This document shows, piece by piece, positions 37,301 through 40,300 of a DNA stretch of 64,000 nucleotides. Made by a program: the position numbers. The stretch lies in NCBI RefSeq assembly GCF_057098645.1, contig NZ_CM169472.1, one strand, 5' to 3'. Within the stretch, counting starts at the first letter, position 1. Every line of letters begins with the position of its first letter.

Positions 37301-40300
37301 CCGGTATTCTGTTAAAACAGCTTGATAATGTTACGCAAATTGTCCAGCATACGACAAAGCTTACCTCTATTCTGGTGATGAAGCCCTGCAAAGACATTCT
37401 TGAACAGTTGATTGCTAACGGAGCATTGACTCCCTATGTTCGAACAACGGGTCTTATAGAAAATAATTTCCAAATATGTTCTTCAGTTAGCGGTTTCAAA
37501 AAAATGAATGTTAACGATGTTTACGGTACGAGCTTTCACAATAAAAATAAAGAATCACGTATAGTATCAATTAGCGGTACAAGTTTTGTGCCAGGTAAAA
37601 CAGCAATAGTGTTCCTTATGCCAATAGGGAATGATATGACAGCTTTTAGTATTGTAGAGTCACGATATATCTATGATCTAATGGATGTTCTTGATGATGA
37701 GAATGATGATTCATTTTCTCTTCGTTTTACTGAAGGGCCTGCAATTATTAGTGGTGTAAATAATAATGACAGGTTATATATGTTAAAAAGAGATTTTAAT
37801 TCTGCGATCAGTCAGGCTCGTCTTACAGTTACTACGCCGATGATATCGTTATATCCCTATATCATTAGCAATGTGCTTTATATTTTGCCGTTATCTATTA
37901 TTCTTTCTTTTGTTCTCTATTTCTTATGGCAGCATTGGATGTCACGGAAAATGTCGCTGGCAGAAGAAATTAAAAAAGGAATGTCATCCGGAGAATTTTC
38001 TGTGCATTATCAACCAGTGTGCGACACGACAACCAAAGCGTGTCTGGGGGTTGAAGCGTTAATGCGCTGGCAACGCGAAGATGGTAAAAATATATCTCCG
38101 GTAGTTTTTATCCGCGCTGCAGAAGAGGAAAATTTAATAATACCGTTAACTAAACATCTCTTTGAACTGATTATTCAGGATGTACAAAGCTGGAAAGTGA
38201 AAAAGCCGTTTCACCTTGGGATAAATATTGCCGCGGAACATCTTGCACATCCTGACTTTGTTGGTGATGTTTTACATATTAAAAATGCAATATCTGATAA
38301 ATTTAATATTGTCCTTGAGATTACCGAACGCAATCTGGTTGAAGACACTGATCTTGCATTACAGAAAATAAATGAGTTAAGGATCCATGGCTGCGAATTT
38401 GCAGTTGATGATTTTGGCACGGGATATTGTTCCCTTGGCCTTCTGCAAAAGTTGTCTGTTGATTATCTTAAAATAGATAAAAGCTTTATAGACACACTCA
38501 CTACAGCGGAAGACGAAACGCCAGTTTTAGATATTATTATTAAGCTGAGTAATCGACTCAATTTGATAACGATTGCAGAAGGTGTCAGTACTCCTCACCA
38601 GGCAGAATATCTTATTCATAATAACGTGACATTAGTTCAGGGATACTTATATGCAAAACCAATGAAAGCGACAGAGTTTTATCAGTGGTATATAAACAGA
38701 TAAATATTAAAAATACTGGAATGGTTTTGTATTGTCTTAAAATATAAACAAAGCAATCAGAATGCTATTAACTGGTGACAAACGCCAGGATCAACAATGC
38801 TGTTAGTGAGTAATACATATGAATCGTGGTGTCCTGCCTGTAGAGAATACGTAGTTATAATCATTTTGACGCGTAACATAATAATTAATTGAAGTGTCTG
38901 CTTTTATGAAGAAATCAGAAGTGATATTTTCAAGGATTTCATCGCTAATGTTATCATCTTTTTGTATTTTTTGGATTTTAACTGTGGTGAGATAAACGGT
39001 ATCACGGAATTTATTGTATGTAAAACTCACATATCGGCGGATGAAGCCCATCTTTTTTCCATCTACCGTGTATGCGCCTGTGAGATACATGTTTCCTGTG
39101 TTATTTTCAGAAATCATATTTAACGAAAAATATTGATCCATTTTTGTATGATCGGTGAAATTAATAACATGGGCATTACATGATATGTTTTGCTCTGCTG
39201 GTTCATTGGAATGATGAAACGCAATATGGCTCAGAATTGCTGCAATAAAAGCACATAAAATTATTCCCGCAAACAGAAAATATCTTTGAGTCATATGATT
39301 ACTCCGCTTTATAATAGAGAGAGTTGCAATTATTTGGTGATTCAGAGTTTAACATTTGACTACAGGTGAAAGCATAAAACCCGCTCATGCTATCATTTGT
39401 TGCAATGTAAACGTAAGGATGTATTTTGCAGTTGACTTCCATTTTCTGCAATTTTTCAATAATCGGCGATAGCATGTCTACGGAATTAAAGTATTTATTA
39501 TCATAAAAATAACTGCATCCTTCCTGAGTAGGGTGTTGAGCATAATTTGAGAAAGCATCTATTTTTTTTATAGTGTGAGATTTGCTTTGAAAAGCCATAT
39601 CGAAAAAATAAGAAGATATATACACTATCCCCCATGCCGCAAAAAAACAAACTATAAGTAATGTATTCTTTGTGGTAAATATACCTTTTGCAACGTGATT
39701 TTTATTTATATTTTCAGTATGGGTGTCATTCTCTTCACTCTCAACACTTTCATTCTCATTGTGATTATTGTCGAGAACAGTTATGTTGATTTCTTCATTG
39801 ATTTTGAAGCCTTTACGTGGCACCGTTCTGATAACATCATTAAATATCGTCGCTGAGCTGATTTCACGAAAGGAACGCCTTATCATCGATATATTTTGAT
39901 ATAAAGTGTTGGTTGCGACTTCGGCACTGCTATCGCTCCAGACTTTTTCAAAGAATTGATTGTGTGACACGACACTATAAGCGTTATCTAAAAGTAACTT
40001 TAAGCATTTTCCCGCAGGATAAGTGAGTATCACTTCCTCTGATGTAAGGAGTGATGTTAACTTATTAGATGATGAGTTGAATCTTACTTCATCATTTATA
40101 ATGTAGATCATTACATTTTATACCTTAGTTGTGTATTACAAATCCAGTATTACTCAGAAAATAAAGGCAAGAACATTAAGTGCACTATAGTATAATTTCC
40201 TAAAAATGCAAATGTGAATTATCTGATTTTTAAGAATAATCTTGATTTAATTGAAATTCTTAAACGATGTATATTTCTATTAAATGCTTTCTGCAGTGAT

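Follow-up and report, generated by a model that had tools for sequence, protein, structure and literature searches.

We find that two adjacent genes in a 64,000-nucleotide (nt) stretch of contig NZ_CM169472.1 (NCBI RefSeq assembly GCF_057098645.1; hereafter the window) very probably encode the regulator GrvA and a FidL-like partner protein, which together make up a two-gene "co-component" cassette of the ToxR/ToxS-VtrA/VtrC superfamily on O island 47 (OI-47). The original prediction had described two open reading frames (ORFs) of 270 and 163 amino acids (aa) at 38803-40111, and both the coordinates and the description are exact. The 270-aa product is 98% identical over 270 aa to ECs_1274 of Escherichia coli O157:H7 Sakai, which is annotated as grvA, and the 163-aa product is 96% identical to Sakai ECs_1273, a "FidL-like protein"; the window alleles differ from their Sakai counterparts by six and seven amino-acid substitutions, respectively. 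The window aligns colinearly with Sakai, DNA identity being 97-99%, and the gene order and neighbours of the pair (pgaA, a gene for an EAL-domain phosphodiesterase, a short-chain dehydrogenase/reductase (SDR) gene, loc6 and otpAB) are as in Sakai OI-47. Near-identity to ECs_1274, combined with a position between the EAL gene and SDR/loc6 and beside pgaABCD, identifies the regulator gene as the grvA orthologue. The segment from 38600 to 40400, in addition, matches E. coli O145:H28 genomes without a difference (100% identity), and in these the pair is annotated as a "winged helix-turn-helix domain-containing protein" and a "FidL-like protein", the latter already being the RefSeq name of the partner. 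The pair has thus been named, studied and classified before (the name grvA dates from 2005, per Tobe et al. 2005 as cited in PMC6393859 and PMC7917084), and our observation is real but not new.

The genes around the pair are those known from OI-47: pgaABCD, the EAL phosphodiesterase gene (the counterpart of Sakai ECs_1272, published as vmpA; PMC4076661), the SDR gene, the loc6 chaperone-usher operon, the otpAB two-partner secretion (TPS) genes and an acyl-lipid/polyketide-like cluster (gene names from PMC4076661, bioRxiv 10.1101/2020.04.13.038984 and PMC8565820). With regard to distribution, 410 of 5426 complete E. coli genomes carry the pair, at 90-100% identity and nearly always at full length, and homologous cassettes are widespread in Enterobacteriaceae. 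A 2024 review confines grvA and OI-47 to O157:H7, O55:H7 and O145:H28, whereas the genome collection shows a wider spread. Several carriers of the pair and of most of OI-47 do not look like enterohaemorrhagic E. coli (EHEC), namely the baboon isolates PapRG-06-5 and PapM-32-1, O157:H16 strain Santai, and the human isolates XH990, THO-010 and TUM18780.

The 270-aa product is laid out as a winged helix (residues ~1-110), a linker rich in Asn and Glu, a transmembrane (TM) segment and a periplasmic domain (residues ~176-270). The winged helix matches Pfam Trans_reg_C over residues 25-103 (E=4.1e-11), and its best sequence match in the PDB is the DNA-binding domain of V. cholerae ToxR (8b4b, E=4e-7). 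A single hydrophobic segment at residues ~148-170, preceded by lysines, reaches a 19-residue Kyte-Doolittle maximum of 2.03 from residue 151, and this hydropathy calculation predicts a protein with one TM segment whose C-terminal domain lies outside the cytoplasm. Four cysteines in the ~95 C-terminal residues (C199, C228, C250 and C262) and the recognition-helix motif NTLYQNIS-IR are invariant across the family members compared, which come from Escherichia, Pseudocitrobacter, Salmonella, Enterobacter, Citrobacter, Kosakonia and other genera. A model of the periplasmic domain found its best match in the periplasmic domain of ToxR, consistent with the alpha/beta fold of ToxR and VtrA. The profile match, the hydropathy and the fold match together bear out the earlier description of this protein as a winged helix, one TM segment and a periplasmic domain.

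The partner begins with a hydrophobic helix at residues ~5-25 (Kyte-Doolittle 2.5). Word-indexed homologue searches with single proteins reached close relatives only, and exhaustive searches of representatives together with profile searches went wider; the exhaustive search yielded 81 representatives of the partner, which were used for an AlphaFold2 model. This model (mean predicted local distance difference test score, pLDDT, 95.1) places a helix at residues 3-29 before eight beta strands, and its seven top Foldseek matches are all ToxS or VtrC. The gene downstream of the regulator therefore specifies what is, by its model, a membrane-anchored periplasmic lipocalin-like barrel of the ToxS/VtrC fold. 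Cys39 is invariant and Cys160 is at least 90% conserved, which fits the conserved disulfide that Kinch et al. describe between the first and last barrel strands (PMC9214523). With regard to family, precomputed Pfam annotation of P0001, a cluster representative 96% identical to the partner, gives PF27292 (YqeJ_C) and PF15941, placing the partner in the FidL/YqeJ family. Direct Pfam and NCBIfam scans of the partner itself returned no usable match; PF27292 was perhaps not in the scanned library, and PF15941 did not register either. The partner resembles ToxS and VtrC at the level of fold only: structural alignments run at 5-14% identity, there was no phmmer match, and a sequence search of the PDB gave no ToxS or VtrC match at E<=10, so that neither this search nor Pfam places it in the ToxS family by sequence. 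The ToxR-ToxS architecture put forward in the original prediction is accordingly supported by Trans_reg_C, by the single TM segment and the fold of the regulator's periplasmic domain and by the ToxS/VtrC fold of the partner; of the two profile matches it had suggested as a check, Trans_reg_C was found and a ToxS-like family match for the partner was not.

Several features indicate that the two genes are tightly coupled. Both ORFs are intact on the minus strand, only 4 nt separate the grvA TAA from the partner ATG, and the Shine-Dalgarno sequence of the partner gene (GGAG, 7 nt before its ATG) lies within the 3' end of grvA. Where genes have been called in relatives, the ORFs of regulator and partner overlap (the loci L005, L007, L012 and L013 are examples), and in every intact cassette examined the regulator gene adjoins the partner gene. 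A search of the two genes and the sequence on either side of them (38600-40900) found no terminator-like site, and the 99-nt spacer between the partner gene and the convergent EAL gene contains no stable hairpin (fold z-score +0.36). We infer that grvA and the partner gene are co-transcribed. The two genes are also as AT-rich as had been claimed, with 33.9% GC in grvA and 33.3% in the partner gene against 48.7% in the whole window, and this AT content suggests that the pair may be silenced by H-NS.

The presumed grvA promoter lies in the region that separates grvA from the divergent SDR gene. The candidate is a sigma-70-like site with two tandem AGATWATTC elements directly upstream, the second of which overlaps the -35 hexamer (Table 1). 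AGATWATTC has just these two matches in the window, and the block is kept in Pseudocitrobacter, whereas the remainder of the grvA/SDR spacer is poorly conserved. The elements resemble the RcsAB-box consensus, which we take to be TaAGaatatTCctA; a scan of the window with the strict RcsB-box pattern TNRGANNNNTCYNA gave no exact match. Judged from their sequence, the elements are candidate RcsB sites, which would fit the reported dependence of grvA on RcsB. Directly 5' of the grvA start codon we also noted a start-stop mini-ORF (ATGTAATG, 40112-40120, minus strand), before which an AAGG resembling a Shine-Dalgarno sequence stands at good spacing for the first ATG; this mini-ORF is also present in Sakai and is absent in the Pseudocitrobacter and L007 relatives.

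GrvA is described as a regulator of the ToxR family whose gene is transcriptionally activated by RcsB. It is required for the stimulation of LEE (locus of enterocyte effacement) by bicarbonate, with increases in ler transcription and adherence, and it represses gadE indirectly via GadW, which reduces glutamate-dependent acid resistance (GAD) (PMC10877973, PMC6393859, PMC7917084, PMC11901407); these statements on the regulon are drawn from reviews. We propose a mechanism whose input (RcsB and bicarbonate) and output (LEE and GAD) come from this literature, while our own observations supply the identity, close coupling and distribution of the genes and the domain architecture, folds and conserved cysteines of their products. 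GrvA would sit in the inner membrane, its winged helix facing the cytoplasm and its small alpha/beta domain, which contains disulfides, facing the periplasm; the partner would be held by its one N-terminal helix and expose the lipocalin-like barrel on the periplasmic side. The analogy with VtrA/VtrC and ToxR/ToxS suggests that the periplasmic domains of the two proteins form a heterodimer; its state, for which a hydrophobic ligand (a bile component, for instance) may be responsible, would control the stability or oligomerisation of GrvA and hence its DNA binding; we infer both heterodimerisation and ligand sensing from this analogy and from a published model (PMC9214523). RcsB, responding to bicarbonate, would activate grvA transcription. 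GrvA would then lower gadW and gadE, which would relieve the repression of ler by GadE and so raise LEE type III secretion and adherence, and which would at the same time reduce glutamate-dependent acid resistance. In EHEC, GrvA connects envelope and bicarbonate sensing, by way of Rcs, with both acid resistance and type III secretion, and its ToxS-like partner matters for the way in which the signal comes in.

Several observations weigh against this proposal. A 2023 survey of transmembrane regulators gives no associated protein for GrvA (PMC10269533), and in the GrvA literature, as covered by reviews, we found no experiment on the partner gene. The reviews also describe GrvA as acting on gadE indirectly, and no site of direct GrvA binding is named in them. 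Finally, deletion of the whole of OI-47 raised type III secretion in strain TUV93-0 (PMC3378721), which is opposite to what would be expected from the loss of an activator (PMC10877973). Another, repressing OI-47 factor, such as the EAL gene, may lie behind this discrepancy; we present the EAL gene as a neighbour, for context only, and do not claim that it belongs to the GrvA system.

The alternative that survives best is the hypothesis of the original prediction, namely that the cassette primarily and directly switches on neighbouring OI-47 genes, the effects on LEE and GAD being secondary. Candidate targets are the genes for the loc6 fimbriae (chaperone-usher type), those for two-partner secretion (otpAB), the acyl-lipid cluster downstream and/or the EAL gene. 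Such local control is compatible with a GrvA/FidL-like co-component system rather than exclusive of it, and we regard it as possible, if rather unlikely. In Pseudocitrobacter sp. RIT415 the cassette (50% and 49% identical for regulator and partner) adjoins the same SDR gene, two-chaperone fimbrial operon and TPS gene, while its other flank differs, with sugar phosphotransferase system genes in place of pga and the EAL gene. In Kosakonia sacchari the cassette (29% and 27%) lies head-to-head with an orthologue of the right-hand OI-47 cluster (identities of 48% for TpsB, 60% for acpS, 73% for the SDR protein, 81% for FabZ and 63% for GCV_T), and other family members adjoin an E. coli common pilus (ECP)-type operon, a chaperone-usher operon, a gene for an ESPR/BigA-like protein, or misL. 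There are precedents for control of this kind, as MarT and FidL activate misL (PMC9214523) and PsaE/PsaF and MyfE/MyfF control fimbriae (PMC10269533), the activation of psaA by PsaE/PsaF being the closest parallel. Recurrent linkage together with the MarT-misL and PsaE/PsaF-psa precedents makes local control plausible. However, the linkage may just reflect joint horizontal transfer of one island, and the difference between the ~50% identity of the Pseudocitrobacter cassette and the 75-89% of the adjoining structural genes could be due to allelic replacement, not co-adaptation. We found no expression or binding data for OI-47 targets in the literature; the genes that reviews emphasise from the ΔgrvA transcriptome are those of LEE and gad alone, and no effect on OI-47 neighbours is reported in reviews of GrvA. 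In the window the usher gene is broken twice by insertion sequence (IS) elements and the cassette is intact nonetheless, and AGATWATTC occurs at grvA only, being repeated at no other island promoter. Local control is a hypothesis with moderate comparative support, made reasonable, but not turned into a discovery, by the linkage in Pseudocitrobacter and Kosakonia.

A more far-reaching version, which we find doubtful, is that the cassette was ancestrally the dedicated switch of an OI-47 surface module, comprising the TpsB-linked acyl-lipid cluster, otpAB and the loc6 fimbriae, and responded through the partner to a hydrophobic gut signal, the effects on LEE and GAD being downstream or recent. 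Were this true, it would supply the first direct GrvA targets and a function for the TPS-lipid cluster that is conserved from E. coli to Kosakonia.

GrvA could also be a stand-alone, one-component transmembrane regulator, with a downstream gene that is dispensable or only stabilising and has no role in sensing. The same survey that names no partner for GrvA (PMC10269533) speaks for this, as does the fact that the published phenotypes came, per the reviews, from manipulating grvA; moreover, the partner gene of the locus L008 is an orphan, lacking any regulator ORF upstream, which shows that the two genes are separable. Nevertheless, the adjacency of regulator and partner in all intact cassettes, the match of the partner's fold to VtrC and ToxS, which are obligate partners (PMC9214523), and the complexes formed by the periplasmic domains of YqeI/YqeJ and PsaE/PsaF (PMC9214523) lead us to consider a solitary GrvA improbable. 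That the pair is a silenced and functionally irrelevant island remnant in the window strain, as its extreme AT-richness and the decay of the island (dgcT deleted, two IS elements in the usher gene, pgaB split) might suggest, is very improbable indeed given that both ORFs are intact with all family-invariant residues kept, that they are 98% and 96% identical to the alleles of a strain background with reported phenotypes, and that the promoter block is conserved.

Table 1. Features of the grvA locus and its surroundings (positions in the window).
Feature	Position	Strand	Remarks
EAL cyclic di-GMP (c-di-GMP) phosphodiesterase gene	37105..38703	plus	convergent neighbour; NCBIfam PRK10551, E=1e-92, below curated cutoff; Sakai annotation
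FidL-like/YqeJ-family partner gene	38803..39294	minus	163 aa
grvA	39299..40111	minus	membrane-anchored ToxR-family transcription regulator, 270 aa
Intergenic region grvA/SDR gene	40112..40788		divergent; 31.9% GC; presumed grvA promoter inside
Sigma-70-like site TTCACA-18-TATACT	40218-40189	minus	candidate grvA promoter
Two tandem AGATWATTC elements	40213..40244	minus	CAAGATTATTCTTA (40244-40231), TCAGATAATTCACA (40226-40213)
loc6 fimbrial usher gene	~43762-47735	minus	interrupted twice relative to Sakai
IS110-family element	43917-45365		transposase 44144-45340; near usher 3' end
IS66-family element	47716-50156		tnpC 47752-49290, tnpA 49684-50085; within first usher codons
207-aa AT-rich ORF (= ECs_1281)	51627-52250	minus	head of fimbrial operon

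The island around the pair shows several signs of decay. Given the two interruptions of the usher gene, the loc6 fimbriae are probably not assembled in the window strain; the corresponding region of O145:H28 strain RM12581 has no IS110 copy and instead carries an IS3 insertion and a deletion. Relative to Sakai, a 1.77-kb deletion (junction 37184-37187) lies between pgaA (34398-36821) and the EAL gene. It removes dgcT (ycdT), the first ~30 annotated EAL codons and the native upstream region of the EAL gene, and joins the pgaA-dgcT intergenic region to that gene; RM12581 is arranged alike, and the conserved reading frame of the EAL gene is intact from MVFNKKMFVL on. Further upstream, pgaB (32735-34389) seemingly consists of two ORFs, of 394 and 151 aa, where a single gene of ~672 aa would be expected, in agreement with the annotation of pgaB as "frameshifted" in RM12581.

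The 207-aa ORF that heads the fimbrial operon had no Pfam or NCBIfam match. In L007 the C-terminus of a homologue lies directly upstream of a matB/ecpA-like gene, which is the position of EcpR. We considered it as an EcpR/MatA-like or YqeH-like regulator and found this assignment unsupported, as it had no significant similarity to MatA, YqeH, the EcpR_N protein of Salmonella pathogenicity island 3 (SPI-3) or the EcpR_N protein of L013. Upstream of otpA, by ~270-300 nt, we noted an inverted repeat, TGAAATGAT ... ATCATTTCA, at ~53335-53343 and 53364-53372; both of its arms are kept in Pseudocitrobacter and its spacer is not, making it a candidate operator or hairpin of the 5' untranslated region.

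Comparison with relatives of the island gave further observations. Over 38803-57452 of the window, the Pseudocitrobacter locus (L005) is 56% identical in the 207-aa gene as well as diverged in the regulator pair, and the divergence of these regulatory genes reflects either fast evolution or allelic replacement. The Kosakonia sacchari locus (L018, CP007215.3, 1-9330) corresponds to 57541-62370 of the window, with the cluster TpsB-acpS-SDR-FabZ-acyl carrier protein-aminomethyltransferase-ketosynthase conserved at 48-81% protein identity; there the TpsB-lipid cluster directly and divergently adjoins the GrvA-family cassette, with no TpsA gene between them. L008, in addition to its orphan partner gene, holds a fragment of a 444-aa fimbrial protein and looks like a decayed island of the OI-47 type. 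Cassettes of the FidL/YqeJ family repeatedly adjoin c-di-GMP enzymes (CSS-EAL, DosC-like GGDEF and DosP-like proteins in L008, L012, L013, L016 and the window) and also repeatedly lie beside regulators of the LuxR/EcpR_N type.

Of the known systems, MarT/FidL shares both the two-gene architecture and the protein families of the GrvA pair. We recovered MarT (P0183) and FidL in SPI-3, where they lie between mgtCB and misL; GrvA is 29% identical to MarT (E=5e-43) and the partner is 30% identical to SPI-3 FidL (E=4e-26). What the original prediction had offered as an analogy is thus a stronger relationship, one of homology between paralogous pairs. MarT/FidL, too, adjoin an adhesin gene, but the known target of MarT is the adjacent misL, whereas the reported targets of GrvA (LEE and gad) are distant. 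The YqeI/YqeJ pair of E. coli, encoded in the E. coli type III secretion system 2 (ETT2) region, has the same architecture, the NTLYQNIS-IR motif and the four periplasmic cysteines (GrvA versus YqeI, 32% identity, E=5e-39; partner versus YqeJ, 23%, E=1e-18). It differs in its locus and neighbours, and yqeI and yqeJ overlap by 8 nt while grvA and the partner gene are 4 nt apart. According to Kinch et al. 2022, YqeI/YqeJ is the orthologue of MarT/FidL and GrvA/FidL-like is an extra, paralogous cassette; complexes have been obtained experimentally for the periplasmic domains of YqeI/YqeJ and PsaE/PsaF (PMC9214523). Bile binding has been shown for VtrA/VtrC only, no ligand being known for any member of the FidL/YqeJ family, and the periplasmic domains of ToxR and VtrA have a C-terminal helix that the GrvA domain lacks (PMC9214523). 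ToxR/ToxS and VtrA/VtrC nonetheless have their domain order and folds in common with the GrvA pair, and Kinch et al. list ECs_1274/ECs_1273 as "GrvA/FidL lipocalin", a VtrA/VtrC-like co-component with a confident complex model (PMC9214523).

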